DNA of 64,000 nucleotides, taken from contig JBAZXG010000006.1 of NCBI GenBank assembly GCA_041660005.1, positions 1,879-65,878 of the forward strand, written 5' to 3'. The translations under genes and the position numbers were made by a program. Below, in pieces: positions 37,810-52,794 of this stretch; within the stretch, counting starts at the first letter, position 1; every line of letters starts with the position of its first letter. This DNA is from Patescibacteria group bacterium. Lineage in GTDB: Bacteria; Patescibacteriota; Patescibacteriia; GWA2-46-9. Under the pieces are notes generated by a model. It saw only the letters and a list, made by a program, of their open reading frames with translations, ran no database searches and was not told the origin of the DNA.

Positions 37810-37885
37810 TGGGGCGGCCAGAGGGAGTTGAACCCTCACCGAAAGGTCCACAACCTTTTGTGCTAACCGCTACACCATGGCCGCC
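37810..37885 (-). tRNA. tRNA-His (anticodon GTG) with encoded G-1 and CCA
   Basis: Reverse complement G-GCGGCCA-TG-GTGT-AGCGGTTA-GCAC-A-AAAGG-TTGTGGA-CCTTT-CGGT-GAGGG-TTCAACT-CCCTC-TGGCCGC-C-CCA. G-1:C73 is the hallmark of tRNA-His. Confidence 0.8.
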
Positions 37886-37974: not shown

Positions 37975-38472
37975 ATGTCCATCAAGCGAAGGAGGCCTAG
38001 CATGGGCAAGTCAGGAGACGCCCCACATGATGTCCATAACAAGGTCGTCGGGTGGGTGAAGCGAAGAATCAGGAACATCGGCTATGAGGTCCGAGCACCT
38101 AACGGTCGCAGTAACTCGTGCTGCTGCTGCGACCTATTGGTGAGCCATAACGGAAACCGTCCGCTGAGGGTAGCAATCAAAGCTGTGACGATGAGGAGGT
38201 ACACGAATCGCCAAATCAATGGCAACGGCAGTACGCGAAAGTACCACTACCGTGCAGCAAGAACAAACCTACACGACTGCCGGCTATCACGGAGGGCGTC
38301 TGCCGAAGTAGCAGTCATTTGCGTCTTGGAAGACGACCGTATCGTGGTCAGCTACGTTCTTCCATGGCGCGAACTGAGACGAAGGCGGAGCGTGTTCATT
38401 CAACCCGCAGAGACCGTCAGTGGCACGAAGTGGTATGACCAGTATGAGGAGACCTGGTCGCTACTGGGCTGA
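37975..38472 (+). CDS. Hypothetical basic protein, markedly GC-richer than its surroundings, with a CCCC tetracysteine; likely horizontally acquired
   Basis: ORF track 165 aa (start may be the internal MGKSGD). No family recognised. Lies between tRNA-His/repeat and the dikinase operon. Confidence 0.35.
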   Translation: MSIKRRRPSMGKSGDAPHDVHNKVVGWVKRRIRNIGYEVRAPNGRSNSCCCCDLLVSHNGNRPLRVAIKAVTMRRYTNRQINGNGSTRKYHYRAARTNLHDCRLSRRASAEVAVICVLEDDRIVVSYVLPWRELRRRRSVFIQPAETVSGTKWYDQYEETWSLLG

Positions 38473-38545: not shown

Positions 38546-39526
38546 TTAATGTAGGGTCGTAATCGGTCGCGACTGAGTGATGTAAAACTTTTTCTTATAC
38601 AACGCCCATTCAATATCTTGTGGGTGTTTATAATGGCGTTCAATCAATACGCAAATTTTTGCGAGTTCTATAATTTGTTTACCTGTGAGCTTTTGCTTGC
38701 CACCAACCTTCGGACTTAACTTTTTTTCTATAGTACCTTTTTGCGCTCTAACAATCGCCATTCTTTGCTCAGATACATTAATGTCGAGAAGTGAATAATT
38801 TTTCTTCAAAATAACGTAGGTGTCAGGGGTGACCTGTCCAGAAACAATCGCTTCTCCTAACCCAAAGCCAGCTTCAATGACTATTTGATCTCGATCGTTC
38901 GTTACAGGATGAGTAGTGAAGGCAATGCCAGAAACTTCAGATTGCACCATTTGCTGCACCACAACAGCGACGGATACAGGCACACGATGCAGTTTTTTCT
39001 CAAAACGATAAAAGATCGCGCGTGGGGTGAATAACGACGACCAACATTTCATTACTGATTGAGTAAGATTTTTTTCAGATACGTTCAAGTATGTTTCTAA
39101 CTCACCTGCCCAGGAAGCAACTTTTGAGTCTTCGGCTGTGGCAGATGAACGCACTGCAACAAGAATTTTTTTGCCTTTGCTTAACTGTTTATACGCTGCC
39201 TTAACTTCTCTTTGCAAGTTTAATGGCATTTTCTCTCGGTGTATAATGTCACGAATTTTAACCGACGCCTTTTCGACCGAGTTAATATCTTTGGGCTTCA
39301 CACTGTGCAAAATGTTTTCGAGTTCAATATTAATGTCTGTTTCTGCCATAAACGCATCAAAAGCAGATGCTAGCACAACAAAACCAGGCGGCACGAATCC
39401 CTGGGCTTGCCCGCCGAATCCTTGGAGAAGGTGGGTCATTTCGCCCAAGGAAGCACCTTTGCCACCAGCGATTTTTACGTCACTATTAGTTATTTTTTCA
39501 AAAACTTTTGTGAACAATAAACTCAT
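38546..39526 (-). CDS. Stand-alone PEP synthase/pyruvate phosphate dikinase N-terminal ATP-grasp (PPDK_N) nucleotide-binding domain protein; last gene of the operon
   Basis: 326 aa; GGKGASLGEM, VPPGFVVLASAF, VAVRSSATAEDS..SWAGELETYLNV, QDIEWA..FYITQSRPIT. These are the canonical PPDK_N blocks, with no His or PEP-binding domains. Confidence 0.85.
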   Translation of the reverse strand: MSLLFTKVFEKITNSDVKIAGGKGASLGEMTHLLQGFGGQAQGFVPPGFVVLASAFDAFMAETDINIELENILHSVKPKDINSVEKASVKIRDIIHREKMPLNLQREVKAAYKQLSKGKKILVAVRSSATAEDSKVASWAGELETYLNVSEKNLTQSVMKCWSSLFTPRAIFYRFEKKLHRVPVSVAVVVQQMVQSEVSGIAFTTHPVTNDRDQIVIEAGFGLGEAIVSGQVTPDTYVILKKNYSLLDINVSEQRMAIVRAQKGTIEKKLSPKVGGKQKLTGKQIIELAKICVLIERHYKHPQDIEWALYKKKFYITQSRPITTLH

Positions 39527-41034
39527 ACTTTTTTTATTATACCTCTATTCGCATCAACCTCAATAATATCGCCCTCCTTAATTTGTTCTAAAACGCCCTG
39601 CGCACCAACAACCGCCGGTATTTTTAACTCCCGCGACACAATTGCCGCGTGCGAAGTAATACCTCCTTCTTCCGTCACAATACCACCAGCAATTTTCATA
39701 ACGGGTATATACTCTGGGCGAGTGTTTGGCGCAACAAGAATGTCGCCACGTTGGAACTTTTTAAAATCTTTTTGACTAAGCACAATCTTGGCAGTACCAA
39801 TAACTTTACCAGGATACGCCGTTCGACCAACTACGTTATCAGTAACAACCAAACTATTCATAAACTGTAATAACGCCTTTGCTTCCCGACCGCTGACAAA
39901 CTGAAGAGTTGTTTTTTTAGGAATAGCAACAAAAATCCCTCGCCTACGTGTTTGTAATATCTTACGATACTGTGATGTCGGCGAAAGTAATTTTTCCGCC
40001 TCCCAATACAAGGCGTACTCCGCTTCACGTAATGGCACACGACTTCTTCTAGTAAATTCTTGAAGGTACCGCTTCAGTAGTTCGTTCCCCATTTGGTTCA
40101 TAGCTTTTCGCTCATCCCGCCAGGTGGCAACAATACTGATCATGTTCGCTACCAACAAAACGGCATGCGGAATTTTCATGCGGCGAATAAATACTTTTTT
40201 CTTTAATAAGTCCCTCTTCAAAACAGCAGGCAATCGTAACTCATTATTTAATTTCTTAGGATTTTTTAGCAGTTCACGAATTGTATTTAAAAAATGACTT
40301 GATGTCAGGCGACGTACAAACGCATAATCACTGAGTGACCAAAAATATGTATCAGTGTGTGCTTTAATTTTCTGAACAAAAAATGGAAACCGCTTAGTAA
40401 TAACACCAATACTTGCACCTTTTTTAATCAAACCCTGAAGAGCAGGATTTCTTTCTGCAGCGGCGGCAAGGCGAGCAATATCTAGACGTTCAATTTGTGT
40501 TGGTAGCAAATAAGGACTCTGAACTAGTAGGTCAACTTCGGCTGAAGTTAGACGCACTCCTGCTTTATCGCACACGTTGTAAATAAGTGTCTCTCCGAAC
40601 ACATCAAAAGCATCATGAAACATTGATTCGCGCCAGAGAGAGTGATACTTTTCAATTTCAACATAGTAGCACTTCAAAAGTTCTGCATTACTTAATTGTT
40701 GTATGCCAGCCCACGGCAGTCCTTTAACGACCGAATCTTGAAACTGTTTATATGATTTACGCCATTTTTGGTAGCGACTCCACATATCACCGGGAATGTT
40801 TTGCTCACGATGTAAAAAATAGTTTGTAACTCGCTTCGCATCTTTCTTGGAAAAAAACAGGGTTGCATAATCGTTACTAAAGTAGGTTAAAAAACAAAGC
40901 TGCAAATCCACTGTTTTTTGATCTACGGTCATAGCGACACAGCTACTGTATGGTGGCGAAATATACAAAATTTTAACTGCGGCACCTTGACGGTACCATT
41001 TCAGTTTTGCCAGCTCTTTTTGGACAAATTTCAT
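39523..41034 (-). CDS. Paralog 6: divergent ~410 aa N-terminal domain + C-terminal PEP-utilizing-enzyme phosphohistidine (swivel) domain
   Basis: C-terminus RGDILVAPNTRPEYIPVMKIAGGIVTEEGGITSHAAIVSRELKIPAVVGA (TSHAAI catalytic His). ATGA overlap with the downstream ATP-grasp gene. Confidence 0.8.
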   Translation of the reverse strand: MKFVQKELAKLKWYRQGAAVKILYISPPYSSCVAMTVDQKTVDLQLCFLTYFSNDYATLFFSKKDAKRVTNYFLHREQNIPGDMWSRYQKWRKSYKQFQDSVVKGLPWAGIQQLSNAELLKCYYVEIEKYHSLWRESMFHDAFDVFGETLIYNVCDKAGVRLTSAEVDLLVQSPYLLPTQIERLDIARLAAAAERNPALQGLIKKGASIGVITKRFPFFVQKIKAHTDTYFWSLSDYAFVRRLTSSHFLNTIRELLKNPKKLNNELRLPAVLKRDLLKKKVFIRRMKIPHAVLLVANMISIVATWRDERKAMNQMGNELLKRYLQEFTRRSRVPLREAEYALYWEAEKLLSPTSQYRKILQTRRRGIFVAIPKKTTLQFVSGREAKALLQFMNSLVVTDNVVGRTAYPGKVIGTAKIVLSQKDFKKFQRGDILVAPNTRPEYIPVMKIAGGIVTEEGGITSHAAIVSRELKIPAVVGAQGVLEQIKEGDIIEVDANRGIIKKV

Positions 41035-42548
41035 AACTTTCTTACTAATCCTTGATCACTATCAATTTCGACAAAATCACCATTCTTTAATACTTTCGTG
41101 GCGACTTTGGTGCCAATTATACAAGGGATGTTCAGTTCACGGGCAATAATTGCTGCATGGCACGTTATACCACCTTCGTCGGTAATAATGGCCCTGGCTT
41201 GACGCACAAGCGGCATAAATTCCGGCCGCGTCATTGTTGTTACCAAAATTGAACCTTTTCTAAATTTCGATTTACTGACCTCAAGCACTACCTGAACACG
41301 ACCTTGAATTTTTTTTACTGGCGAAGCAACAACTTGCCCTTTAATTTCTTTTTTACTTGCTTGGTTAATAAAAATAACACTCCAAATTTTTTTTGCACTG
41401 CTACCTGTATAAATATGTTCATAATTTATACCATTTCGTTTTGTCTGAACGAAAGCTGAAAACTTGCGACGTAGAGCTAATTCGCGTTTATTTGGTATTT
41501 TACCGCCACGCAATAACTGATGACGTTCTTCAATACTCAAATATTTTATCTCCCAAATATTTAGCTTGCTCCGCCGTTCAAGTTCGTTAGCATAAACCTC
41601 AAAATACAGATTAGCAATTAGTGCCAAATGCTTCCTTTCGTCTATCCAACTCATCCAAAAAGACAGTAGTTTAAAGGCAGTTTTTAATTCGTAAGAAAGT
41701 CTAAATTGTTTACGTAAGCGGAACTGTGCTAATCTTAGTCTCTTTATTTTTGATAGTAAATTATACAACTCGACTTTTAACTTTTTTTGAGAGTTCTCTT
41801 CGCATTGTCGTCGTACCTCTTTATAAAGAATGCTAGGAATCAATAAATTGGATTTCTTATAGTTTGAATTAAGCCAGAAATATTTTTTTGATAACAGATT
41901 GACAGTTTTTTGAAGCGCTGTCGGACTTTTTGACAAAGAACTGAATCTACGAACTACGCCGTACCATCGAACGGCTACTTCTAGAACTTCACATTGATAC
42001 TCCTCAAGAAAACTTAACTTTAATGGTTGCGATAAAGTTGCCATGATATTTGTTACCTCCGCTGGTGTAAGCTGCGGTAGCTCCCGAGATAGTAACTTCG
42101 GTAATTCATACGTTGTAAAAACATCTGCCGATTCTAATACCCAAGTAATTCGCCAATGGTCAAGAACGAGCCGATTAAAACGGTCCATGGATTTGATTAC
42201 TTCCTGATCGCTCAACCCATTTCTTGATTTAATAAAAAAATCTCCCTCTCTATTAATACCACGCCTAACTTCCCGCCAGAGTTCATAATTCTTTCGCTGC
42301 AATGTTGAACCTCTTTGATACTTTTTCCAAAGATAATGCCAGATTGCCAATTTTTGATCCTCGGGTGTCTCTTCAAATACAAAATCCGATTTGAAAAATG
42401 CTACCATAAAGTTTGGCAACGTTGGATGCCAAAATTTTGACTGCTCAACAAAAGCACGAACCCAAATAGAAAACATGGGCACCGCTGGTGCCTCCTCCGA
42501 CCAGTAAGTATGTTTTTTTGTTTCTTTCAACGTTCTTTCTAAACTCAT
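41031..42548 (-). CDS. Paralog 5: N-terminal unknown domain + PEP-utilizing swivel domain
   Basis: C-terminus KGSILVTTMTRPEFMPLVRQARAIITDEGGITCHAAIIARELNIPCIIGT; ATGA overlap both sides. Confidence 0.8.
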   Translation of the reverse strand: MSLERTLKETKKHTYWSEEAPAVPMFSIWVRAFVEQSKFWHPTLPNFMVAFFKSDFVFEETPEDQKLAIWHYLWKKYQRGSTLQRKNYELWREVRRGINREGDFFIKSRNGLSDQEVIKSMDRFNRLVLDHWRITWVLESADVFTTYELPKLLSRELPQLTPAEVTNIMATLSQPLKLSFLEEYQCEVLEVAVRWYGVVRRFSSLSKSPTALQKTVNLLSKKYFWLNSNYKKSNLLIPSILYKEVRRQCEENSQKKLKVELYNLLSKIKRLRLAQFRLRKQFRLSYELKTAFKLLSFWMSWIDERKHLALIANLYFEVYANELERRSKLNIWEIKYLSIEERHQLLRGGKIPNKRELALRRKFSAFVQTKRNGINYEHIYTGSSAKKIWSVIFINQASKKEIKGQVVASPVKKIQGRVQVVLEVSKSKFRKGSILVTTMTRPEFMPLVRQARAIITDEGGITCHAAIIARELNIPCIIGTKVATKVLKNGDFVEIDSDQGLVRKL

Positions 42549-43996
42549 ATTTTCCTCACAACTCCGGTGTTTCCGTTTACTTCAATTCTGTCACCCGTTT
42601 TAAATACAGCTGTAGCTATCTCTGTTCCCGTAACGCAGGGTATCCTAAGTTCACGAGAAATAATGGCTGCGTGCACGGTTACTCCACCTTCGTTCGTTAC
42701 CACGGCCACAGCTTTTTTCATGGCCGGAACAAAATCAGGGGTCGTCATTGGTGTAACTAAAATGTCTCCCTTTTTCAAAAATTTTATGGCTCGGCGAGGG
42801 TCCTCGGTCACAAATGCCCTACCGGTCGCGATACCAGCCGAGGCTGGTGCACCTTTAACAGAGGTTAGATTATTATTCTTTAATTTCAACTTATTATCAA
42901 TAAAGCGTAACGCTTGTTTACCGGTTTTTTCTAATTTTTTTGAGCCGTTCATAACAACCAAATAACCAGATTTACGATCAATTACTGTACGCTTTGGAAT
43001 TTTGCCGGTTCGAATAACACGACGCAGCTCATTTGGTTTCAGCCAAACGAGATCGGCCATTTTTAAACTATACGTCCGAGCAACTTTTCTTCTAATTTCA
43101 TCCATTAAAAAGAGCGAGCGCATCTGAATTTCTTTTCTTTGATCGTGCATGCGAGCGATCTTGTCAAGAACCGTCAAATAAGGTCGCACTACTTTTTCCG
43201 GCACTTGAAAACGCTTAAGAACGGCACGCCTATTTTCAGCAATTCTTTTTGCGTAGTCTAAAATATACTTTCTCTCTTGTTGATATTCTATTGATGTCAA
43301 TTTCGCACAAGCTCGAGTTTCTTGTTTTATTTTTTTTCGGGTCAACACCCCTCTTCCACCCCAACCTATAGTCAACCAATAATACTTTCGATAAATGTGC
43401 TCGACGTCTTGAGCGCTGACTAGAAATTTTTTATTTTTGATTTTTTTAGAGAGTTCAAGTATGGCCAATTTATAATTCAAAACTTCACTTCTGTACGCTG
43501 GTTGTAAAACCTTGGACCAGGCATCTTTGTCGTCTACTAAGTTCGGATATCCCTGACGTGAAACTTCTCTGGTCACTATTTCTTCAAAAAAGTCATCGAA
43601 CGCATCAATGCCAACACCAACGATACGGCAATGTTCAACAGCTAAGTCATGTATGGTTGTGTACACTTTGATTAAAGCTTCTGTGTTTTTCGGCAAAGTG
43701 GAAGAAATCAATAACGAAAAATACGCCAGAGCATTTTTGTAGTGCTTATTTTCCACTCTATAAAATCTTCCGTTCACACCACTTGTTATCATTTTTTGAA
43801 CCCACTTTACCCCAACATTTTTATACTCAGGCATCCCATAGGCCCAATAAATATGCGACCCCTTAAGCGCAACGGCTAAACGTGGAGCAATATGATACTC
43901 GACGCCGCGCATGGGTTTTGCCATAGATTCAAAGTATGGCTGAAGCGCTGCAAAGGTTACGCCATCCCGTTCATAAAGTTTGTACTGTGCATTCAT
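42545..43996 (-). CDS. Paralog 4: N-terminal unknown domain + PEP-utilizing swivel domain
   Basis: C-terminus KGDILVTPMTTPDFVPAMKKAVAVVTNEGGVTVHAAIISRELRIPCVTGT. Confidence 0.8.
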   Translation of the reverse strand: MNAQYKLYERDGVTFAALQPYFESMAKPMRGVEYHIAPRLAVALKGSHIYWAYGMPEYKNVGVKWVQKMITSGVNGRFYRVENKHYKNALAYFSLLISSTLPKNTEALIKVYTTIHDLAVEHCRIVGVGIDAFDDFFEEIVTREVSRQGYPNLVDDKDAWSKVLQPAYRSEVLNYKLAILELSKKIKNKKFLVSAQDVEHIYRKYYWLTIGWGGRGVLTRKKIKQETRACAKLTSIEYQQERKYILDYAKRIAENRRAVLKRFQVPEKVVRPYLTVLDKIARMHDQRKEIQMRSLFLMDEIRRKVARTYSLKMADLVWLKPNELRRVIRTGKIPKRTVIDRKSGYLVVMNGSKKLEKTGKQALRFIDNKLKLKNNNLTSVKGAPASAGIATGRAFVTEDPRRAIKFLKKGDILVTPMTTPDFVPAMKKAVAVVTNEGGVTVHAAIISRELRIPCVTGTEIATAVFKTGDRIEVNGNTGVVRKI

Positions 43997-45465
43997 ACTT
44001 TTTTGACCGTGCCTGTTTTGGTATTAACTTCGACAATATCACCATCTTTAAATACTTTAGTCGCCGCACCAGTGCGAACAAGGCAAGGGATACCCAGTTC
44101 ACGAGATACCACGGCTGCATGAGAGGTCATACCGCCAGTATCTGTAACAACTGCGGCTGCTTTTCGCATCAAAATAACAAACTCTGGAGATGTCATTGGG
44201 GCCACGAGAATATCCCCCTTTTTCATCTTTTTTTGATCTTTAAAGGGGTCTCTAATTATTTTGACTGCCCCTCTAACGTTGTAACCGTTTCCCCGACTAA
44301 CAACCAACCCCCTCACTTCTTTTATACTTTGACTGACTCTTGAGTCATACTTTTTTAGTAACGACTCGGCTTGCTTCCCGTAATATTCTTTTACTTTTTC
44401 TTTTCCAGAAACCCAACAGTAAACTTTAGCTCGAGAGATTATTTTTTTATAATCAAGTTTCTGCCTTTGTGCTAATTGCGTAACCTCCCACGGCCAACAC
44501 CAAACAATATCGTTAAATTTCCAATTGTTTCGCCAAGCAATTTCCTTCACTAACTTGTCTGTGTAAAACTGCATCCTCCAAATGTACATTTTGCGTAAAT
44601 CCTGCCACCAAATTGAGTTGCTGAGTTGTTCAGCCGTGAACTGAACATTTTTCGAAAGTCCGACATTTTTAACTAATGCTCTTTTCTTTTTTTGAGCGTC
44701 GATCATTCGACCCTCAATTTTTCTTATTCTTTTCTGCACATCGGATCGTGACGACAATCTCTTCACCTTTTTTTCAAAATATTGCTCACTCAAAATCTTA
44801 CTTCCCGCATAGTTACTCAGTAGCAAACGATATAGCTCTGCATGTTTCAAAAAAGCATTCAGCCGCTTTTTTTTGTTTTTTATCAATGCCAACCGTAACA
44901 AATCAAGCTCCTCCTGTTGAGTAAAGGAAAGTTTTGTGAGCGCTGACAAAGTTTCTAAATAATCTTCGGCCTTGTTTGCATCAATTTTTTTCAGACTATC
45001 ATAAAGAATTTTTTCTCCTCCCCAATTGGCAATCTCTGGTATATGCACAATACACCACAATGCATCCATGCAAACGTACGTAATCTCATAGAGAAGCAAT
45101 AAATCTTTGTCTGACAATCTTTTTACATCAACCGCTTCTAAAAAACTTATAATTTTCCTGGATTCGAGTACCCACCTTTCCCACCGTGACCAAAGCAACT
45201 GATAATTTTTTTTGTTTAAAAAATATTTTATAAAATACTTCTGACCCGTTTGTTCAAGGATGTTGTATTCAACAATCCCTACAATTTTTCCATCTTGAAA
45301 AGCCGCTACCATAGATGGCCATGGCCAAGGATAATCTTTCTTATTTTTTCTTCCTGGACCTTTTAAGGTATCACCCCAAATTCCAACGTACAATGGACGA
45401 CCCTCTACGGGTCCCCATTTAAAGAGTGACCTTTGCGGATTCACCATATAAGACGACCGGTGCAA
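43993..45465 (-). CDS. Paralog 3: N-terminal unknown domain + PEP-utilizing swivel domain
   Basis: C-terminus KGDILVAPMTSPEFVILMRKAAAVVTDTGGMTSHAAVVSRELGIPCLVRT. Confidence 0.8.
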   Translation of the reverse strand: MHRSSYMVNPQRSLFKWGPVEGRPLYVGIWGDTLKGPGRKNKKDYPWPWPSMVAAFQDGKIVGIVEYNILEQTGQKYFIKYFLNKKNYQLLWSRWERWVLESRKIISFLEAVDVKRLSDKDLLLLYEITYVCMDALWCIVHIPEIANWGGEKILYDSLKKIDANKAEDYLETLSALTKLSFTQQEELDLLRLALIKNKKKRLNAFLKHAELYRLLLSNYAGSKILSEQYFEKKVKRLSSRSDVQKRIRKIEGRMIDAQKKKRALVKNVGLSKNVQFTAEQLSNSIWWQDLRKMYIWRMQFYTDKLVKEIAWRNNWKFNDIVWCWPWEVTQLAQRQKLDYKKIISRAKVYCWVSGKEKVKEYYGKQAESLLKKYDSRVSQSIKEVRGLVVSRGNGYNVRGAVKIIRDPFKDQKKMKKGDILVAPMTSPEFVILMRKAAAVVTDTGGMTSHAAVVSRELGIPCLVRTGAATKVFKDGDIVEVNTKTGTVKKV

Positions 45466-45468
45466 TAA

Positions 45469-46479
45469 CTAATGCTGTGCATCTTCGGCTTCAAACTTCG
45501 TTTGTGCCGCCGCAGCTAACTCAATTATTTTATCCCAATCTAAAGAAACTTTTTTACCCTCAAAAAGCTTTGCGCGCGCTGGGTCGGTAAACTCACAAGA
45601 AATTTCCGTATCTCGAGTAAAATCAGCAATATTTCGAGGATCGCCAAGCCGAGTATCCCTTTGAAGCTTAAGACGTAAGGCTGTCGCTTGGCTTGTAAAG
45701 CCGCCAATTTCGTCAACATCATCAAAGCCAATTTTTCTCTCTCCCGTTTTTTCATCCTCAACAACTAAAGCATATTTGTATAAAGATTCAGCGAACATAC
45801 CACTGCCGACAATTGGAATGGCTTTTGTTTCTCCTCCCTTCACTCCACGGCGAGAAAGTTCTAGGGTCTTCATGAGCTCATATGCCTCATTTTCTGCCAT
45901 AGTCCTAACTTCGGGTTCCTTTTGCATGGCTTTTCTGAAAGCAATGTTTTGTGCCATCTCCACATATTTCACTCTAAATTCTGGGTCCTGCTTAAATCTC
46001 TCCTGCTCTTCCGGACTTAGACCAGAAACCAGTCGACTAATCTCTGTACTCACAAGTTCCATTTCAGCTCTAAATTTATCAAGAAGACCCGCCCCCTTAT
46101 AGTCAACACCAATGCCACGACGCGTACCAATCACTTTACCTTTTCCATTACGCACTCGAGCTGGGCCGAGATCTTTTGACAGTCTTCCGACACCAAACCG
46201 TCCGCTCCCTTTTAATATATCTTCCCCTGTCTCACCATGGCGCGACTCGTCTCCGCCTCTTGGATGAACGAGAGTCACTTCTGGTGGGTAGGCCTCACCA
46301 AATTCTCTAGACATTTGTTTACCGGCAGGGGTCAAATCTGTTGGATCTTTGAAAGTAATAATACTGCCATCACTGAACGTAATCTTTCTCTCTCCTCCAT
46401 AACGACTACCGTGTCGTCCTAGGTCAATATAGGTAGTTGCAACAAATTGTTTTTCAGCCTCTGGGTTTCTTTCTACCAT
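45469..46479 (-). CDS. Hypothetical protein, possibly histidine-phosphatase-like (RHG motif: IDLGRHGSRYGGE)
   Basis: 336 aa. The family call is weak and rests on one motif. Confidence 0.35.
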   Translation of the reverse strand: MVERNPEAEKQFVATTYIDLGRHGSRYGGERKITFSDGSIITFKDPTDLTPAGKQMSREFGEAYPPEVTLVHPRGGDESRHGETGEDILKGSGRFGVGRLSKDLGPARVRNGKGKVIGTRRGIGVDYKGAGLLDKFRAEMELVSTEISRLVSGLSPEEQERFKQDPEFRVKYVEMAQNIAFRKAMQKEPEVRTMAENEAYELMKTLELSRRGVKGGETKAIPIVGSGMFAESLYKYALVVEDEKTGERKIGFDDVDEIGGFTSQATALRLKLQRDTRLGDPRNIADFTRDTEISCEFTDPARAKLFEGKKVSLDWDKIIELAAAAQTKFEAEDAQH

Positions 46480-46480
46480 A

Positions 46481-47074
46481 TTAAAAGATGCTAAATAAAT
46501 CTTTTTTAAGTTGGCCTACTGACGTATAGAGTAGCACTTTCATACCCGCATCGTTAGCACCTTGCACCCTTTCAGGGCGATCGTCAATATAGACGGCCTC
46601 TTCTCCTTTAACCCCTGCCCTTGCAAGGGCTAAATCAAAAATTCTTTTGTCCGGCTTTCGAATATGGTCGAACCCCGACACCGTTTTTACGGTAAACAAA
46701 TTGTCCCATCCGTAGCTACTGTTTAAATACTCAAACCACTCCTTGGGATTATTGGATATCACTCCGAGAATGAATTTTCCTTTCAATGTCTTTATAAATT
46801 CATAGAGCTCAGTATTGGGAGCAAAATGTCCGTAGATGTTTTTATTTAGCTCAACAATATTGAGTTCACCCTTAAAATCTTTTTTTAGTTCTTCGTAATA
46901 TTTTTTTTCAGAAATATTCCCTAGGGTAAACTCCTTCCAATACGGCCGATCGTGGGCTGAGGCGTAAAGCTCGCCCGCGTTTAAACCATGTGACTCTTCA
47001 TACTGCCGAATACCGGGATTATACCCTTCGGTCACTAACACACTACCGGAATCGAAGAATATTGCCTTCACCAT
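46481..47074 (-). CDS. HAD-superfamily-like hydrolase/phosphatase
   Basis: 197 aa; motif I-like IFFDSGSVL, motif II VISNN, motif III/IV K...VYIDDRPE. Confidence 0.55.
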   Translation of the reverse strand: MVKAIFFDSGSVLVTEGYNPGIRQYEESHGLNAGELYASAHDRPYWKEFTLGNISEKKYYEELKKDFKGELNIVELNKNIYGHFAPNTELYEFIKTLKGKFILGVISNNPKEWFEYLNSSYGWDNLFTVKTVSGFDHIRKPDKRIFDLALARAGVKGEEAVYIDDRPERVQGANDAGMKVLLYTSVGQLKKDLFSIF

Positions 47075-47086
47075 ACTGTTTAGGCT

Positions 47087-48583
47087 CTATTTTGCCCGTT
47101 CAAGAATACGGACGATTCCTTTTTGCGCATCAACTTCCAATAAATCATTGTCACGAATAATGCGCGTGCCATTCTCTGTAGCGATAACGCACGGCACGCC
47201 GAGTTCGCGCGAAACAATTGCCGCATGTGATGAAAGCCCACCCTGATCTGCCACAACTGCCGCCGCTTTTTCCATAGCTGGTACAAAATCTGGCGTAGTG
47301 AATTGAGCAACGAGAATATCACCCCGGTTTACTTTGCCGATTTCACTTTTGTCCAGACACACCTTGGCTCTTCCTTTGATGATTCCACCAAGACAAGCCA
47401 TTCTTCCAAAAATTTCTTCTTCTTGTTTAACATCAACATAATACTTTTTTTCTAACTGCTTAATCCTTGCAGGATCAGTAATCAGTTCAGTAACGGCATT
47501 CCTAACCAGCATTGCATAGTCGCGAAGTCGCCGTTGCATCTCAGATATGTTCGGCAGTGATTTACCCTTGAGCGCACCAAACATTTCTGGCACCGACACC
47601 TCCATTATCCAGTCTTCATTAAACTTGGAACGCTTGGCAACTTCGGCATACATGAAACTTGCGCCATAGTCAGCATTAAAAAAAGCTTCCACTCTGCGGT
47701 TACGCATATACGAATGCATTCTTGCTTGCTTGATGATATGTAGAAAATCCTTTTTGGGTTTAATTTTCTTTAACGCCCACTTATAGTCATCTTTAATTTT
47801 CTGCTCAGAAGCTTGGTAAATTAAATCGCTGATAGACTCCCCCGCACTAATCTGCTTCTTTATTTCCTTTAACCTATCCACGATGTCCTTGAAGTTGTAC
47901 GGCTTACTTGTTGCGAGCCCCCTGTTAATATACGCAAATTTATCTAAATGCTTCTCAATAATTCCTGTTGCTTTTTTTGACAAGTGGCTAAGATCTTCTT
48001 TTCTTTCGGCAAATACTTTGGCGATACGGACAAGCTTCCACCGCTCTTCGGCGACATCGGTCATGTCCTCTGGGTCGGTAAAGATCAGCACATATTTCCT
48101 AAAATCCGGATTATCGGCAGATATATAGGACAACAATTGTTCTTCAATTAATCCTTCAAAATAAATATCAAGTGAATACTGTGCGTACCATGCGCACATT
48201 AGTGGACTATACTCTTCGAGGAGTGTCTTAAGAACGGACTCCATTTGTTTATTCGTCTTTTTGCTCCAGTCAACCTTTTTAAGTGCGAGTCCTTTTTTAT
48301 ACAAATGCTCGGCCCTCTTTAATTGCTGCTTAGCATATTTTTCAAACCAGCCGTCATTCTTTTTCATGTGACCAAGAAGCTCTTCTTCGAAAGGATTATA
48401 CTCTTCAGCTGACCAATACATCATGTGGTGCAAATATGCTCTATTAGGCAAGGTACGAGTGAAATAAGATTTTTTCGCGTTTTCGGCAGTGAACGACGCA
48501 TTAATGATAAACCTGATAAAAATCGGCAGTTTCCCCGATGGTTTGATTCTCCATTTTCCCGAATGCATAACAGCTCCAATCAT
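47087..48583 (-). CDS. Paralog 2: N-terminal unknown domain + PEP-utilizing swivel domain
   Basis: C-terminus RGDILVAQFTTPDFVPAMEKAAAVVADQGGLSSHAAIVSRELGVPCVIAT. Confidence 0.8.
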   Translation of the reverse strand: MIGAVMHSGKWRIKPSGKLPIFIRFIINASFTAENAKKSYFTRTLPNRAYLHHMMYWSAEEYNPFEEELLGHMKKNDGWFEKYAKQQLKRAEHLYKKGLALKKVDWSKKTNKQMESVLKTLLEEYSPLMCAWYAQYSLDIYFEGLIEEQLLSYISADNPDFRKYVLIFTDPEDMTDVAEERWKLVRIAKVFAERKEDLSHLSKKATGIIEKHLDKFAYINRGLATSKPYNFKDIVDRLKEIKKQISAGESISDLIYQASEQKIKDDYKWALKKIKPKKDFLHIIKQARMHSYMRNRRVEAFFNADYGASFMYAEVAKRSKFNEDWIMEVSVPEMFGALKGKSLPNISEMQRRLRDYAMLVRNAVTELITDPARIKQLEKKYYVDVKQEEEIFGRMACLGGIIKGRAKVCLDKSEIGKVNRGDILVAQFTTPDFVPAMEKAAAVVADQGGLSSHAAIVSRELGVPCVIATENGTRIIRDNDLLEVDAQKGIVRILERAK

Positions 48584-48601
48584 ATATTTCAGTTGAATTG
48601 A

Positions 48602-49171
48602 TTAAAGTAGTTTGTCGAAACAATGCGGATGTTCTATATAATATGAAAGCTCGCGCACAAAAGTTTCTACTAAGTTAATTTTGTTTTGTTGATGTAGTGC
48701 CCAAACTTCCTGTAGGTCGAAGGCATCAAAATCACTAATTTCAACTTTATTCGGAACGAATGGGCCGTCTGTTTGTCCTATGTACCAATATACCATGATG
48801 CCTCCTATCGATAAATCGGGCATGGGCAAAATTTTAAATAGGGTAATTTCTGTGTCGATCGACAGCTCCTCAGACAATTCACGCTTTGCTTCTTCTAGAA
48901 TTTCCTCTTTCGTGCTCGCGCCTGCGCCTACAAAACCACCGACTGCATACGACCAGCAATTGGGCTGTAAGTCTTTTGTAGCGCTACGCTGTTGTAGCCA
49001 AAATTTCCCGTCAGTATTACGTAACCAAATATGGGCTGACCGTCTCATTATTTTTTTGTTTGTTAAAAACTCTCTCCTACTCGCTCGACCAATGACCCTG
49101 TCGTTCATGTCAACAATATCATGAAGCTCTTCCAGCGAGTCAGTGGTATTGGTTAAGTTGACTTGACTCAT
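48602..49171 (-). CDS. NUDIX hydrolase
   Basis: Nudix box GGFVGAGASTKEEILEEAKRELSEELSI (GX5EX7REUXEEXGU). Confidence 0.8.
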   Translation of the reverse strand: MSQVNLTNTTDSLEELHDIVDMNDRVIGRASRREFLTNKKIMRRSAHIWLRNTDGKFWLQQRSATKDLQPNCWSYAVGGFVGAGASTKEEILEEAKRELSEELSIDTEITLFKILPMPDLSIGGIMVYWYIGQTDGPFVPNKVEISDFDAFDLQEVWALHQQNKINLVETFVRELSYYIEHPHCFDKLL

Positions 49172-49174
49172 AAA

Positions 49175-49813
49175 CTATTCGTGTAATTTTTGTTCTACGT
49201 CTTGCAGGTCATACAGATTTCCTATTTCTGCATAACCTTGCTTCACTCTGGCACCTTTATTGTCGTTTTGTATATGATAGGTGCGGTATGTAAAATCAGG
49301 GAGTTCACTAATCAATTCATCGGCAGCTTCGATAAACGACTGGCAGTTAATTACCCTGTCGTCGGTATAGACAACTGTCTTAAATCCTTCATTATATTTT
49401 CTTTTTAATAAGTCCTTCAACATCTCTTTTGTTTTGCAGTTAGTGTCTCCGTAATCAAACGTGCTATTAATTTCTTCTATGAAATCACGAAAATCAAACC
49501 CGCAACGAGGATTCAAATATTCTGCACGCCAATCAAGTTGCTCGCGGTTACCTTGAGTAAAAACAATATTATTTTTTGTCCATGTTAAAACATCTTTAAA
49601 TCCTTTATTCGGACCCAATTTGAACATCCCTTTTTTGTAAGGTTTTTCATAAAGCCACTCATAGTCACGCGGGCTAATTGTTTTTAAGTCATATCCTAAG
49701 GATTCGACATACGCGCCCATGTTCGAAAAACCTGTACCCTCAGCATCCCAAGGTTCGAGTATGATGGTATTTGCAATGTCCCAAATATAGAGGGTTTTAC
49801 TCTCGCTCGTCAT
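49175..49813 (-). CDS. Hypothetical protein, weakly HAD-like (LYIWDIANTII ... VVYTDDRV), paralogous to 46481-47074
   Basis: 212 aa; motif resemblance only. Confidence 0.35.
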   Translation of the reverse strand: MTSESKTLYIWDIANTIILEPWDAEGTGFSNMGAYVESLGYDLKTISPRDYEWLYEKPYKKGMFKLGPNKGFKDVLTWTKNNIVFTQGNREQLDWRAEYLNPRCGFDFRDFIEEINSTFDYGDTNCKTKEMLKDLLKRKYNEGFKTVVYTDDRVINCQSFIEAADELISELPDFTYRTYHIQNDNKGARVKQGYAEIGNLYDLQDVEQKLHE

Positions 49814-49815
49814 AT

Positions 49816-51348
49816 TTATATTTTTTTCACCACTCCATGATTTGCGTTAACTTCTACAAGGTCTCCGTCTTTCAAAACCTCTGTGGCTATTTTAGTTCCA
49901 ATAATACAAGGTATTCCGAGTTCCCTCGAAATAATTGCGGCGTGTGAAGTAACGCCACCTTCGTCAGTTACAATCGCAGCAGCTAACTTCATGGCAGATA
50001 TGTAATCAGGCCTCGTCATAACGGCTACCAGAATATCGCCTCTCTGAATCTTATTAACTTCTTTTACGCTTTTTAGCACCTTAACTCTCCCAACGACTTT
50101 TCCAGTAGAAGCAGCTAACCCTCTGAATTCGTTCATACCTGATACATCGGTACTGCCGAAAATTTTTTCTTTTACGGCATCCGCATCGTGACCAGACAAT
50201 GCTTCATGGCCTTCTTTGTCCCAATAAAAAACACAACCTTTTCTCCTCTCCCTTAACTCTTTTACCTTTGGCTTTTCCTGAAAAATTTTCGACACCTCTC
50301 TCGGGCTCAAATACTTAAGCTCTTCCAAGGGAATTCTTACCCTGCGGCTAATCTCTCCCAAAATTAAACTCATGTAATGCATTGTCCAAAACACCGCCTT
50401 TTTACGATCATCCTGCCACTTAGTAAAATCTTCTGAAATAGTGATCATTGCTTTGAGCTCACTCGATAGCTGCAATTTTTTCATCATTTCTTGCTTCTTT
50501 TTCTTATTCAACGCTGGCGTTTCTTTAACCCTTTTGAGTTCCTCTTTTATATTAAGCTTCAGTTTTTTAAGATTCGCTATTTCTTTTTTAAAATAGTCAA
50601 CACTCAACACATGATGATCCACATAATTATTATGAATCCAGAAGTAACTTTGCTGATGCTTTTTTAATGCTTCCCGACCCCCCTGCAGCGCAACGCTAAG
50701 TAAGCTCACCTCTGCTTCATTAATAAAAGAAAGATGTACCGGAGCGGTTAAAATAGAAAAAACATCTGTAAAACGGTGAGTGTTTTTTATCTTGGACTGG
50801 TTATACGCCACTTGGATCTTTTTTGCCACCAACTCATCAGTGCCAAGAGCAAAAGCGTCAATTAAGGAACTAGAGCTATTTCTCTTTAATATAACTTCTA
50901 CAAAGTCATCATGGAGCTGCATCAACGCTCGATTATTGAGCTTTGTTAACTTCTTTTGTTTAACTTCTTTGCATTTCTGATAAAATGCTACCTCATCTTT
51001 TTTCCAGAGCTCCATAAAGTAACGACTGACATGGGGAATCTTTTTCGCTCTTTTAAGTATGGCAGTATATGTTCTTTTGATGTCTCGCATCAAAATGTAC
51101 CAACTCATCCCTCCATCTCTAAAAAAACCATAATGTACACTACAGTCACCACCGAGCTTCCTTTCTTTGTGTACCTGAATTTCTGCTTCCGCAATGAAGT
51201 GAACAAAGTAGGGCGAGGCATCAAATGCTTGAAGATACCACTGTTTCCGAGTCCACAAATGTAGTTTTCTTTTTGTTAACCCTTTAATGTATTGCATGAA
51301 ATTTTTATTGCCGAGGATAGCGAGTGAAGCGCAAATAGCAATTTGCAT
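49816..51348 (-). CDS. Paralog 1 (first gene of operon): N-terminal unknown domain + PEP-utilizing swivel domain
   Basis: C-terminus RGDILVAVMTRPDYISAMKLAAAIVTDEGGVTSHAAIISRELGIPCIIGT. A shared N-domain motif (S/K)YFW..NY is seen in several paralogs. Confidence 0.8.
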   Translation of the reverse strand: MQIAICASLAILGNKNFMQYIKGLTKRKLHLWTRKQWYLQAFDASPYFVHFIAEAEIQVHKERKLGGDCSVHYGFFRDGGMSWYILMRDIKRTYTAILKRAKKIPHVSRYFMELWKKDEVAFYQKCKEVKQKKLTKLNNRALMQLHDDFVEVILKRNSSSSLIDAFALGTDELVAKKIQVAYNQSKIKNTHRFTDVFSILTAPVHLSFINEAEVSLLSVALQGGREALKKHQQSYFWIHNNYVDHHVLSVDYFKKEIANLKKLKLNIKEELKRVKETPALNKKKKQEMMKKLQLSSELKAMITISEDFTKWQDDRKKAVFWTMHYMSLILGEISRRVRIPLEELKYLSPREVSKIFQEKPKVKELRERRKGCVFYWDKEGHEALSGHDADAVKEKIFGSTDVSGMNEFRGLAASTGKVVGRVKVLKSVKEVNKIQRGDILVAVMTRPDYISAMKLAAAIVTDEGGVTSHAAIISRELGIPCIIGTKIATEVLKDGDLVEVNANHGVVKKI

Positions 51349-51584
51349 TTCCGAGCGACGATAGAATCAAAGGGTTTAATACCCCGCGGCTACGCCGCGA
51401 TCCCTTTCTCAATCCGCCCACTGGCGGATTGATGGATCCAGGGCTTTGCCCTGGGGTTAATACCATTTATTTGCTTTTCTGTGAGATACCGTTACTTTAG
51501 CCGGTAATGAAAGTTTAGGCAAATCAAAAAACTACGAATTTTCTAAGAAAAACGGGCATTTTCTCAGTATTTTCCGCTTAACCA

Positions 51585-51613
51585 TTGACACATTTCAAGG
51601 GATGCGCTATGCT
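51585..51613 (+). promoter_or_regulatory. Sigma70-like promoter TTGACA-N17-TATGCT on the PLUS strand, reading into the ORF-free structured region
   Basis: accaTTGACAcatttcaagggatgcgcTATGCTact. Confidence 0.4.
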
Positions 51614-51619
51614 ACTTAG

Positions 51620-52580
51620 TTCCTTAAATGGAACATCCCGCTCTTTCATAGATTTAAAACCATACAGGGGAGAGAGACTCTGTAGAACCAAGGGCAGCGC
51701 ACGCTGTTTTTGGCGATACGCAAAAAGGCGTAACTCTCTCGAGTTGCGTCTTTTTGCTAAAGACGAGGTGACTACCGACTTCTGGGGCTAGACCTGTTCC
51801 GCTTTATGTGGACGGGATGGCTGACGGAAAGAATGGGCTGGTGCATAACTAGCTTGCTCCTTCTTTAAAGCCCCACACTTGGACGGCTTTCGAGCCAAAC
51901 CCAAGCCCTAGCCCGGAGGTCGGTGGACATCTCACAAGATGCACACTTTTGTGGTGGTCCTGTTATCAGGGCACCCACCGATGTGGAGGGTTAGAATCGT
52001 TCCGCCGACAGTGCGGACGATCGTTTTGAAGGAAGGATTGTTCTGGTTTATACTAGAACGCACCTTCTTGAGAAACATACCCAACGAATACCTTCGGGTA
52101 ACACGTTGGCCTAACCTCCAAATCGGTGGGTTTGTAAAAAACTCACAAACAGTGCGACGCGCGTGTGCGACGATAATCCACTCCTCATGGGAGGGAGAGT
52201 GGACAAGGGTCAGGAATACACAATTTTCCTACCCGCTCGCACACTACGCCGACGGATGTGGATGGCTCTGGCACACATCCCTTCCGTCGAAATTTGGCCA
52301 CATGGTCACGCTTCTAACCTGCTCTGAGGAGTACGGCTAAAGCCCGTCCGTGGCCAAAAGTTGAGAGACGACCGCATAATCGTCTCGCCAACATTGGAGG
52401 AGTCGTCTTGCTAATACCAAGCGACTCCTCCTACCACTTTATTTTTATAATAGGTACGTCGCCCTTTGCGATGAACGTCTCAATGCGTTAATCTCAGTGG
52501 GCGCCTAGTGCCTCCTTCGCGCAAAAGGGTGGCGGAGACGTGACCTTTACGCCTCCGCCACTCGCAAATCTTTTTTGCGG
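51620..52580 (+). ncRNA. Candidate large structured non-coding RNA (~0.95 kb), GC-enriched relative to coding flanks, ending at an intrinsic-terminator-like hairpin + T6 (52531-52576)
   Basis: No ORF >133 aa in any frame across 51349-53375; only short composition-biased ORFs. Dense local hairpins. Promoter at 51585-51613 and hairpin GGCGGAGACGTGACCTTTACGCCTCCGCC followed by ...tctttttt. No match to the rRNA, RNase P, tmRNA or SRP hallmarks I checked by eye. Confidence 0.3.
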
Positions 52581-52794
52581 CCTCCTCCCCTGAGGTCGCA
52601 AAGGGGGGAGGGTGCGCTTGTGCAAAACCGTGCATGTCGTGCCCTCCTCACCTCTCTTTTCTATACACCGGCGAGCTCGCACTCTCGCCTCTTCTCAAGG
52701 GGCAAGTAGTTCTCAAACACAAACGTCTCCTAAACAGGAAACGTATGCCGCGAGATAAATCTCTCTCCTCCTACTTGCCCCTTGAGAAGAAAAG

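Follow-up and report, generated by a model that had tools for sequence, protein, structure and literature searches.

An operon linking one stand-alone ATP-grasp protein to six putative dikinase substrate/swivel paralogs in a candidate-phyla bacterium

Small-molecule dikinases made of two components have been described: phenylphosphate synthase PpsAB, CreHI and HpeHI each consist of an ATP-grasp subunit and a subunit with a RIF-binding-domain-like fold and a swivel domain, paired 1:1 (PMC12167813). They act on phenols in the aromatic catabolism of Proteobacteria and Actinobacteria, and the same source records, for a split enzyme of this type, transient complexes and a substrate subunit that carries out the phosphotransfer unaided. 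The split form of the enzyme is thus already known, contrary to the sequence-only reading of the locus reported here, which knew of no described system of this architecture. Rifampin phosphotransferase (RPH), which acts on rifamycins, is one polypeptide with one module (PDB 5HV1, 5FBS; mechanism in PMC4844700). The prodigiosin ligases PigC and RedH are RPH-like three-domain enzymes, single fused proteins of pigment clusters, whose scaffold is usable for condensation by phosphoryl activation as well as for stable phosphate ester formation. In plants, glucan, water dikinase phosphorylates a non-pyruvate acceptor by way of a swivel His and an ATP-grasp, which sets a precedent for polymers or sugars as acceptors; this eukaryotic enzyme is a single polypeptide with another domain order and carbohydrate-binding modules.

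The operon examined here lies in a 64-kb window (the whole stretch of DNA analysed) from a small-genome candidate-phyla bacterium. It consists of eleven same-direction genes on the minus strand (38546–51348), encoding one PPDK_N ATP-grasp protein, six paralogs of ~500 aa, a NUDIX hydrolase, a HAD phosphatase, a histidine-phosphatase-fold protein and a weakly HAD-like protein (Table 1). An ORF check recovered all eleven where the sequence-only reading had placed them. Neighbouring genes overlap by 4 nt at four junctions and are otherwise 1, 2, 3, 3, 12 and 18 nt apart; the sequence-only reading had given 2–18 nt for the gaps.

Table 1. Genes of the operon in order of transcription
Feature	Coordinates	Strand	Evidence
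Gene 1, dikinase substrate/swivel subunit, most widely conserved subfamily	49816..51348	-	RIF-binding-domain fold and phospho-His swivel
Weakly HAD-like protein, 212 aa, motif I W-D-I-A-N-T	49175..49813	-	BLASTP E 0.03 to operon HAD
NUDIX hydrolase, RE-x-x-EE core of Nudix box present	48602..49171	-	PF00293 E 3.7e-10
Paralog 2, dikinase substrate/swivel subunit, opens triad with HAD and histidine-phosphatase-fold protein	47087..48583	-	PF00391
HAD-IA phosphatase, paralog 2 partner	46481..47074	-	PF00702 E 3.8e-15, PF13419
Histidine-phosphatase superfamily protein, 336 aa, RHGxR	45469..46479	-	Fold-level similarity, without Pfam model
Paralog 3, dikinase substrate/swivel subunit, TTG start (longest ORF)	43993..45465	-	PF00391
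Paralog 4, dikinase substrate/swivel subunit, identical to P0002	42545..43996	-	PF00391
Paralog 5, dikinase substrate/swivel subunit	41031..42548	-	PF00391
Paralog 6, dikinase substrate/swivel subunit	39523..41034	-	PF00391
Stand-alone ATP-grasp (nucleotide-binding) subunit, final gene	38546..39526	-	PF01326

Domain searches agreed with the same reading on the separation of the ATP-grasp. Pfam placed PF01326 (PPDK_N) in the final gene alone (E 4.5e-93, aa 18–324 of 326, near full length), where the motifs GGKGASLGEM and VAVRSSATAED are seen, and PF00391 at the C-termini of the six paralogs (E 1e-24 to 1e-27). The PEP-utilizers_C TIM barrel, which had been raised as a possible identity of the N-domains, was found by Pfam in none of the eleven proteins. 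No other ATP-grasp was detectable within the window, the part of the genome seen here. Against NCBIfam the protein matched the N-terminal third of PEP synthase (E 1.5e-98) and RPH (E 5.9e-81), in alignments confined to the first ~315–340 model positions. Stand-alone orthologs of 311–315 aa occur in five related loci (L006, L019, L020, L084 and L089).

The catalytic His of the C-terminal swivel domain, within GG-x-[TS]-x-HAA, is kept in all six paralogs, as that reading had noted; of the 364 family members that reach 400 aa or more, 342 keep it too. The N-domains had been described as homologous yet highly diverged, and they are both: the swivel domains have a mean pairwise identity of 48.1% and the N-domains one of 17.4%, while hhalign joined the paralog-2 and gene-1 families with a probability of 99.6% (E 1e-23). 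A gene-1-family N-domain HMM also detected paralogs 3 (E 2e-26), 5 (E 1.6e-21) and 6 (E 2.3e-23), and the paralog 3 N-domain is 30–36% identical to members in L007, L003, L002 and L005. The database record of gene 1 (P0001, 493 aa) starts 17 codons downstream of the longest-ORF start, probably at 51297; an alternative call for paralog 3 begins 24 codons further in.

RPH is the only solved structure that matched a whole substrate/swivel subunit. N-domain and swivel share its fold at ~15–17% sequence identity, as separate proteins with six modules rather than one polypeptide. By phmmer, aa 314–480 of paralog 4 align to RPH-Lm 701–863, reaching upstream of the swivel domain; NCBIfam RPH-type models match paralog 4 from aa ~237, and PRK06241-type (RPH-like) models match paralog 5 from aa ~234. 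The family's conserved W-x-D-x-R-K, E and R could not be matched to RPH Arg666, Glu667 (the catalytic pair) and Lys670, the sequence register being off by ~8 residues. PEP synthase (PpsA) is nearest in sequence to the ATP-grasp and to the swivel domains (E ~1e-32), and GG-x-T-[SC]-H is common to PEP synthase and the operon swivel domains. Unlike PEP synthase and PPDK, the operon's proteins are split, lack a PEP/pyruvate-binding barrel and carry an unrelated helical substrate domain before the swivel. PigC and RedH models matched the ATP-grasp and swivel parts at ~65–221 bits, against cut-offs of 1300–1350, and no pyrrole-pathway genes lie at the operon.

With HpeHI, CreHI and PpsAB the operon has in common a separate ATP-grasp subunit of ~310–360 aa encoded by an adjacent gene, a second subunit combining a RIF-binding-domain-like fold with a C-terminal swivel His and, presumably, conversion of ATP to AMP, Pi and a phospho-acceptor via phospho-His. 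It differs in ratio (six substrate subunits to one ATP-grasp gene, elsewhere up to 10 or more), in hosts (CPR and DPANN), in substrate subunit length (~490–510 versus ~610–650 aa) and at position −2 of the His motif (Thr versus Met). PRK08296-type models match only the swivel domain of the operon subunits, under cut-offs.

Among the accessory proteins, two had been called HAD-like from the sequence. One, the partner of paralog 2, is a HAD, with counterparts at the same position in L084, L085, L089 and L090. The other is only weakly so: it has no Pfam match even at E ≤ 5 and an Ala at the Asp+2 position of motif I, and its BLASTP alignment to the operon HAD is colinear across motifs II–IV. Its ortholog holds the same position in L084 (53% identical), as does that of the NUDIX hydrolase, and the two genes adjoin in a Doudnabacteria cluster. 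The nearest named models to the NUDIX protein, YfcD (NCBIfam, 55.6 bits against a cut-off of 152) and IPP-isomerase-type, score far under their cut-offs. The protein first noted for an RHG motif indeed has a histidine-phosphatase fold, branch-2/acid-phosphatase-like; its relatives are mostly labelled Patescibacteria, and it resembles sugar-phosphate and inositol-polyphosphate phosphatases, the phytase-like similarity being at fold level only. Phosphatases of four to five superfamilies (HAD, NUDIX, His_Phos, HD and LMWPc) recur in related clusters, and dikinase subunit, HAD and histidine phosphatase form a conserved triad. Elsewhere a dikinase subunit is fused to a HAD (P0257, P0392) in the order of the adjoining window genes, and the HAD part of P0257 is 28% identical to the operon HAD (E 1e-15). 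The sequence-only reading had the accessory hydrolases process phosphorylated or nucleotide by-products; these fusions suggest that they may act in the same pathway as the dikinase subunits.

The N-domain profile matched ~4,760 cluster representatives (50% identity). The same architecture was seen across dozens of genomes, with identical genes on two independent contigs (L001 and L086); the number of modules varies from 1 to more than 10, and accessory genes differ too. Clusters L006 (10 His-bearing ORFs), L019 (six), L084 and L089 each have one stand-alone ATP-grasp. In other relatives the ATP-grasp is fused in RPH order to a single module (L037, 828 aa), or to two (L011, L029, P0254), three (P0247), four (L031, P0164) or six (P0270) modules, and L015 has eight swivel domains behind it in one 3,761-aa ORF. 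The fusions lend independent support to the earlier proposal that one ATP-grasp may serve several modules. Paralog 2 orthologs in L084 and L085 are 70–74% identical, and more than 100 cluster representatives, nearly all labelled Patescibacteria, share 53–68% N-domain identity with it. Across phyla or domains, ortholog identity is 53–74% for paralog 2 and ~57% for gene 1, set in a conserved gene block. Some gene-1-type orthologs have no nearby ATP-grasp (L004, L087). Others carry a fused XRE helix-turn-helix, a hint that this subfamily may be regulatory. We found no literature description of the arrays of Patescibacteria and DPANN archaea with ratios from 1:6 to 1:10+, of the family behind the matching representatives, or of the fused megaproteins, the dikinase subunit-HAD fusions and the triad. 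For ultrasmall bacteria and archaea, neither the one-to-many arrays nor the giant fusions seem to have been described.

We regard it as fairly probable that the operon encodes a two-component small-molecule dikinase (RPH, PpsAB, HpeHI type) enlarged to several substrate subunits around one shared ATP-grasp. Domain content, fold, catalytic His conservation, gene linkage and gene fusions are observed; the sharing of the ATP-grasp, the AMP + Pi stoichiometry, the small-molecule acceptors and the physiological role are inferred. On this best reading the battery would transfer phosphate to several small molecules, or to several sites of a single molecule. The single ATP-grasp protein would bind ATP, and the swivel domains of the six subunits would dock on it in turn; the conserved His would attack the beta-phosphate, AMP being released and the gamma-phosphate lost as Pi. 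The phospho-His domain would then swing back to its own RIF-binding-domain-like N-domain and phosphorylate the bound ligand, and the HAD, histidine-phosphatase-fold, NUDIX and HAD-like proteins would act on the phosphorylated products. The swivel domains would be alike because they have a common ATP-grasp partner, and the N-domains diverged because each takes an acceptor of its own or a distinct position on a common one. Counted against this proposal are the kinase beside phosphatases, which could be a regulatory or futile cycle, the eight swivel domains of one polypeptide that would all need one ATP-grasp, the gene-1-type orthologs with XRE fusions or without a nearby ATP-grasp, the residues out of register with those of RPH, and a second ATP-grasp that might lie outside the 64 kb of this genome seen here.

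The modules might instead work one after another on a single scaffold molecule, for instance a polyol, sugar, inositol or biosynthetic intermediate. They would install several phosphates, or turn one hydroxyl or carbonyl group after the next into a phosphate leaving group in the manner of PigC/RedH, with phosphatases and other tailoring enzymes finishing the product. Channeling explains an eight-module fusion more easily than unrelated substrates do, and DPANN clusters hold tailoring-type genes (five methyltransferases, a PLP enzyme and hexapeptide transferases); the PigC and RedH matches and the sugar- or inositol-phosphatase resemblance fit as well. Yet module number and accessory genes vary between genomes, two subfamilies show conservation independent of the others and may be present as single genes, a search of the clusters yielded no gene for a precursor or scaffold, and the phytase-like likeness stops at the fold; we consider this rather unlikely. 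The sequence-only reading had raised xenobiotics or antibiotics as possible acceptors; in such a resistance or detoxification battery every paralog would phosphorylate, and thereby disable, a compound of its own, in the way RPH treats rifamycins. Such a role could draw on the whole-subunit match to RPH, the diverged substrate domains, the GC content (0.40 in the operon, 0.47 in the flanks), a nearby tRNA gene, the transposase, toxin-antitoxin and conjugation-type genes of related clusters, and an earlier survey that scored 'rph-like' matches in CPR genomes (PMC8651080). However, the NCBIfam RPH model gave 273 bits against a cut-off of 999, over the ATP-grasp only, PADLOC returned no significant defence-model match, and the linked phosphatases would reverse an inactivating phosphorylation. 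The tight conservation of two of the six paralogs and of their gene block, in order with HAD and histidine phosphatase, is atypical of accessory resistance genes and resembles core metabolism more than a set of resistance enzymes under fast evolution. The suggested role is unsupported, and we hold it improbable.

Very improbable, in our view, is a regulatory phosphorelay whose swivel-His proteins, instead of working as metabolic kinases, would carry phosphate or act as sensors (as in Enzyme I/PTS or PEP synthase regulation) and signal ATP/AMP or ligand status to proteins or DNA. The XRE-bearing gene-1 subfamily keeps the catalytic His and forms tandem pairs without a nearby ATP-grasp, CBS-domain genes adjoin some family members, and the PEP-synthase-type Thr is kept two residues before the His, the regulatory site in PpsA and PPDK (PMC12167813). 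But six to eleven 500-aa paralogs would be a heavy signalling cost for a ~1-Mb genome, the N-domain has a fold that in an enzyme binds substrate, and fusion partners include ATP-grasp and HAD enzymes. An artefact, whether mis-assembly or frameshifted and duplicated fragments of an ordinary ppsA, can be practically discounted. The closeness of the swivel and ATP-grasp domains to true PEP synthase might invite it, but every ORF is intact and encodes both an N-domain and a swivel domain, PEP-utilizers_C is nowhere present, and the independent contigs, the dozens of genomes and the many profile matches contradict it; the ppsA-fragment possibility raised at the outset is refuted.

The proposed shared-ATP-grasp dikinase system, a trait conserved in Patescibacteria and DPANN archaea, would most likely serve the ATP-driven trapping or activation of scavenged metabolites.

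All eleven ORFs lie on the minus strand, running from 51348 down to 38546, just where the sequence-only reading had placed them (see table). Four of the gene junctions are 4-nt overlaps, and the remaining genes are 1-18 nt apart. Pfam bore out the main domain assignments of that reading: within the operon PPDK_N (PF01326) is confined to a 326-aa ATP-grasp protein (aa 18-324, E 4.5e-93), and a PEP-utilizers swivel domain occupies the C-terminus of six proteins of ~483-510 aa. There are six substrate subunits to one ATP-grasp, both in the operon and across the 64-kb window. The catalytic His is invariant in all six paralogs (GG-x-[TS]-x-HAA, within T/N/D-x-x-GG-x-x-x-H). The PEP-utilizers_C barrel (PF02896) was found by Pfam in none of the 11 operon proteins, and two accessory proteins, of 336 and 212 aa, had no Pfam match, for the latter at E<=5.

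Features of the operon and its surroundings, with arrays and fusions of the same kind at related loci in other genomes (L handles) and in homologous database proteins (P handles)
Feature	Location	Strand	Details
Gene 1, substrate/swivel subunit	49816-51348	minus	
212-aa protein	49175-49813	minus	
NUDIX	48602-49171	minus	Pfam
Paralog 2	47087-48583	minus	
HAD	46481-47074	minus	Pfam
336-aa protein	45469-46479	minus	
Paralog 3	43993-45465	minus	
Paralog 4	42545-43996	minus	
Paralog 5	41031-42548	minus	
Paralog 6	39523-41034	minus	
ATP-grasp	38546-39526	minus	Pfam
165-aa ORF, unannotatable, convergent	37975-38472	plus	directly downstream of operon
tRNA-His	37810-37884	minus	directly downstream of operon
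Array	L002		about 10 paralogs in 21 kb
Array	L003, Woesearchaeota		8 paralogs
Array	L007		11-13 swivel-bearing ORFs
Array	L006		10 swivel-bearing ORFs + one stand-alone ATP-grasp
Array	L019		6 swivel-bearing ORFs + one stand-alone ATP-grasp
Array	L089, 960-kb contig		8 swivel-bearing ORFs + one ATP-grasp
Fusion, RPH-order single module	L037		828 aa
Fusion, ATP-grasp + two modules	L011, L029, P0254		1,311 aa (L011)
Fusion, ATP-grasp + three modules	P0247		
Fusion, ATP-grasp + four modules	L031, P0164		1,994 aa (L031), 2,309 aa (P0164)
Fusion, ATP-grasp + six modules	P0270		2,648 aa
Fusion, ATP-grasp (aa 4-313) + eight swivel-His domains	L015 6212-17497, Woesearchaeota MAG		uninterrupted 3,761-codon ORF

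The part of each substrate subunit that precedes the swivel domain, here the N-domain, has diverged far more than the swivel domain itself. Pairwise identities among the six paralogs are 12.6-21.8% (mean 17.4%) for N-domains, against 38-57% (mean 48.1%) for swivel domains. An HMM of the gene-1 family, built with the window's other paralogs excluded, recovers four of them, with E-values between 1e-11 and 1e-26 when scaled to a nominal 1e6 sequences, and hhalign aligned paralog 2 with the gene-1 family over 364 columns (probability 99.6%, E 1e-23). These comparisons indicate that the six N-domains are mutually homologous despite their divergence.

An AlphaFold2 model of gene 1, from an alignment of 78 sequences, reached a mean pLDDT of 93.2. 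Its top six Foldseek matches were all entries for RPH-Lm, a rifampin phosphotransferase (RPH), at E 5.7e-14 to 7e-12 and query-normalised TM of 0.37-0.56. In several paralogs, matches to NCBIfam models of RPH type (PRK06241) continue to the N-terminal side of the swivel domain. The six-sequence N-domain profile was marginal against RPH (E ~0.8), so the link rests on structure and on the partial NCBIfam matches. On the modelled structure, the substrate subunit is assigned a fold like the RPH RIF-binding domain followed by a C-terminal swivel domain. The comparison with RPH domain order made from sequence was therefore apt. The same reading had named two outcomes that would have spoken against it, that the N-domain is a TIM barrel or that the paralogs are frameshifted pieces of ppsA; Pfam, NCBIfam and the structure search rule out both, and the RPH-like fold was found instead. 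In RPH the swivel travels >40 Å, and Arg666 and Glu667 are required in the second half-reaction (PMC4844700). A conserved W-x-D-x-R-K in the family lies ~27 residues upstream of the segment aligning to RPH position 701, 8 residues out of register with Arg666.

The structural interpretation first put forward was largely right, but its statement that no such architecture had been described was wrong. PpsAB (phenylphosphate synthase), CreHI and HpeHI are known as 'two-component small-molecule dikinases', with one subunit homologous to the RPH ATP-grasp and another homologous to its rifampin-binding and swivel domains (PMC12167813). In HpeHI the conserved His is indispensable, no stable complex forms between the two proteins, and the substrate subunit alone moves phosphate between acceptors (PMC12167813). 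The window proteins resemble these systems in having the ATP-grasp on its own polypeptide, with PF01326 as its only domain, in the RIF-binding-domain-like fold and C-terminal swivel domain of the second subunit, and in the catalytic His of the swivel motif ([TS]xxGGxxxH in those systems), kept in six of six paralogs; they differ in that the known systems are 1:1 pairs acting on phenols, whereas the operon is 6:1. NCBIfam PRK08296 models of PpsA/HpeH type cover no more than the last ~100 residues and score 47-96 bits, below their cut-offs of 578-730. RPH is a single ~865-aa polypeptide, whereas its domains are on separate proteins here; against the RPH models NF041857 and NF000283 (cut-off 999 bits) the ATP-grasp protein scored 273 bits and the paralogs 56-78. 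In sequence, both the ATP-grasp and the swivel domains come nearest to genuine PEP synthase, an enzyme with three domains in one chain and the C-terminal, PEP/pyruvate-binding TIM barrel (PF02896) that is missing here. With the PEP synthase models TIGR01418 and PRK06464 the similarity is confined to positions 1-340 for the ATP-grasp and ~340-460 for the swivel domain, and the scores of 104-331 bits stay below the cut-offs (598-740). Two positions ahead of the His, PEP synthase and the window paralogs share a Thr, where RPH and HpeH have Met. With the two-component systems already described, the claim of novelty narrows: what appears undescribed is the one-to-many arrays, the poly-swivel megaproteins, the CPR/DPANN distribution, and the triad of subunit, HAD and histidine phosphatase.

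We found 4,760 representatives of 50%-identity clusters matching the six-N-domain profile at E<=1e-3, and 3,102 at E<=1e-10; no Pfam model covers the N-domain in any of them. Where a source is named, it is in the great majority of cases one of the Patescibacteria (Doudna-, Kerfeld-, Uhr-, Staskawicz-, Falkow-, Nealson-, Buchanan- and Moranbacteria) or of the DPANN archaea (Woesearchaeota, Nanoarchaeota, Micrarchaeota); a few records are otherwise labelled. The multi-module fusions to an ATP-grasp support, as Rosetta-stone evidence, the working of a single ATP-grasp with many modules. In the eight-module megaprotein of L015, modules 1-3, with an acceptor part of ~250 aa, are shorter than modules 4-8 (~380 aa); just upstream of its ORF lies a CTP_transf_like gene of small size (4766-5176). 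Our literature search found no description of arrays or poly-swivel proteins in CPR/DPANN; a survey of CPR genomes merely counted 'rph-like' resistance matches (PMC8651080).

Two of the six paralogs, gene 1 and paralog 2, fall in tight orthologous groups. The gene 1 N-domain shares ~57% identity with members from L002 and from a Woesearchaeota genome, and such identity between bacterial and archaeal orthologs suggests inter-domain transfer. A gene-1-type subunit can also stand alone, beside a CBS protein and an anion transporter (L004). A related subfamily carries an N-terminal XRE helix-turn-helix and retains the catalytic His and a WQD[DE]RK motif; its genes come two in tandem, without an ATP-grasp gene in the neighbourhood, and it may be a ligand- or phosphorylation-responsive regulator. 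Its members include L087 8001-9755 and 9843-11543, and P0060, P0065, P0066, P0069, P0071, P0085 and others.

Paralog 2 has >100 cluster representatives at 53-68% N-domain identity. It is followed by HAD and then the 336-aa protein in every case (L084, L085, L089, L090), and is fused to HAD, in the same order as the window genes, in P0257 and P0392. A Doudnabacteria cluster (L084) keeps the whole block order of 212-aa protein, NUDIX, paralog 2, HAD and 336-aa protein. The window's accessory genes were essentially absent from the first 83 related loci; they are conserved only in a Patescibacteria subset, found by way of the 336-aa protein and paralog 2. By fold and by its RHGxR catalytic motif, the 336-aa protein belongs to the histidine phosphatase superfamily. 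The 212-aa protein is weakly HAD-like (pairwise E 0.03 to the operon's HAD); its motif I is D-I-A-N-T, with Ala at Asp+2, where the HAD consensus is DxDx[TV], and this is kept in its ortholog.

Other clusters have alternative accessory phosphatases (HD, His_Phos_1, LMWPc), and also methyltransferases, small nucleotidyltransferases and hexapeptide-repeat proteins. Several genomes have small genes for CTP_transf_like (~140 aa) and Flavokinase (~135 aa) proteins adjoining or within dikinase clusters (L084 1-731; L085 10696-11121 and 14384-14779; L014 6927-7316; also L015). The pair resembles a split FAD synthetase and, as a matter of neighbourhood, may point to cofactor salvage. Two DPANN-type clusters share a three-gene block after a dikinase subunit (L002 11514-14315, L003 18459-21293), consisting of a ~364-aa hexapeptide-repeat protein and two proteins without Pfam match. 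Another unannotated family recurs adjoining an ATP-grasp gene or fused dikinase (L006 13858-14535, L011 4920-5747, L085 4941-5906), its only hint being a PTP-like phytase Pfam match at E 0.066. A connection to inositol polyphosphates would be speculative, drawn from that one match and the fold-level likeness of the phosphatase to phytases and MINPPs.

GC content is 40.2% in the operon and 47.3% over the remainder of the window. Housekeeping genes flank the operon: a P-type ATPase and SMC lie to one side, YmdB, RNase Y, ClpP, IF-2 and Pol I to the other. A 16S rRNA gene is found elsewhere in the window. The tRNA-His gene, the convergent ORF and the 7-point GC drop would be in keeping with the operon having been acquired as an island. 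That 165-aa ORF was also seen on an independent short contig (L001). Mobile or selfish elements were noted in or beside two related clusters (L089 4146-4709 and 17288-20323; L084 11406-12097 and 15412-15597), comprising an IS200-type Y1 transposase, PrgI/TraC-like/TraG-type conjugation genes, and RHH-PIN and MazE-type toxin-antitoxin genes. In a promoter/terminator scan, promoters were not above shuffled expectation, so we claim no operon boundaries from it. A PADLOC scan gave no defence-system match, only two at chance level (E 0.0013 and 0.0043).

Between gene 1 and ymdB are ~2 kb (51349-53375, GC ~0.50) without a convincing ORF, in an otherwise gene-dense window. Neither a RiPP-like precursor nor any other small ORF there was convincing, Rfam gave no match at gathering or E<=1 thresholds, and the region has several inverted repeats but no tandem or direct ones. 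A decayed gene, or an RNA not described before, could account for it. A 40-56-nt intergenic element occurs three times in the window at 91-95% identity (52815-52870, 23530-23584, 37391-37430). One copy separates tRNA-Phe from tRNA-Pro, and another closely follows the P-type ATPase gene. The operon-proximal copy adjoins a hairpin with a 12-bp stem (52797-52824).

The best-supported reading of the observed domain content, fold, His conservation, linkage and fusions is a battery of dikinases sharing one ATP-grasp; the dikinase chemistry, the sharing and the small-molecule acceptors we infer by homology. ATP would be bound by the ATP-grasp protein, the swivel His of each subunit would accept the beta-phosphate with release of AMP and Pi, and the swivel domain would hand the phosphate to an acceptor held in the RPH-like cleft of the same subunit. 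A single shared partner and many acceptors would fit the uniform swivel domains and the diverged N-domains. With phosphatases both linked and fused to the subunits, dephosphorylation would belong to the same pathway. As to the role, we guess that scavenged metabolites are trapped or activated, in view of the reduced metabolism of CPR/DPANN lineages and the scavenging argument made for HpeHI.

The megaproteins, and the tailoring genes in the clusters, would also suit an assembly line or multi-site machine acting on one scaffold. Such a 'poly-dikinase', CPR/DPANN-specific and shared by gene transfer, would have one ATP-grasp charge a series of swivel phospho-His carriers, up to eight or more in number and each paired with an acceptor-binding domain of its own, for ordered phosphorylations or phosphoryl activations on that scaffold; it might store phosphate or energy by making a polyphosphorylated polyol or sugar, or drive stepwise condensations. 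Module number varies, however, and we think this rather unlikely. RPH similarity, the low GC of the operon and mobile-element neighbours could instead speak for a battery of resistance enzymes, an improbable reading given the conserved orthology, the synteny and the linked phosphatases. A regulatory phosphorelay would draw on the HTH fusions, the PEP-synthase-type Thr and the neighbouring CBS genes, and seems very improbable. That the operon is an artefact is refuted.

CPR bacteria and DPANN archaea have ~1-Mb genomes from which most biosynthesis is missing. Many nonetheless devote 10-20 kb to dikinase clusters (12.8 kb in the window), and a single gene elsewhere takes up to 11.3 kb. A natural set of swappable acceptor domains on one ATP module would be of use in biocatalytic phosphorylation. 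Identifying the acceptors would extend the range of swivel-His dikinases past PEP synthase, PPDK, RPH and phenol kinases, and could show how episymbionts capture or activate scavenged metabolites.
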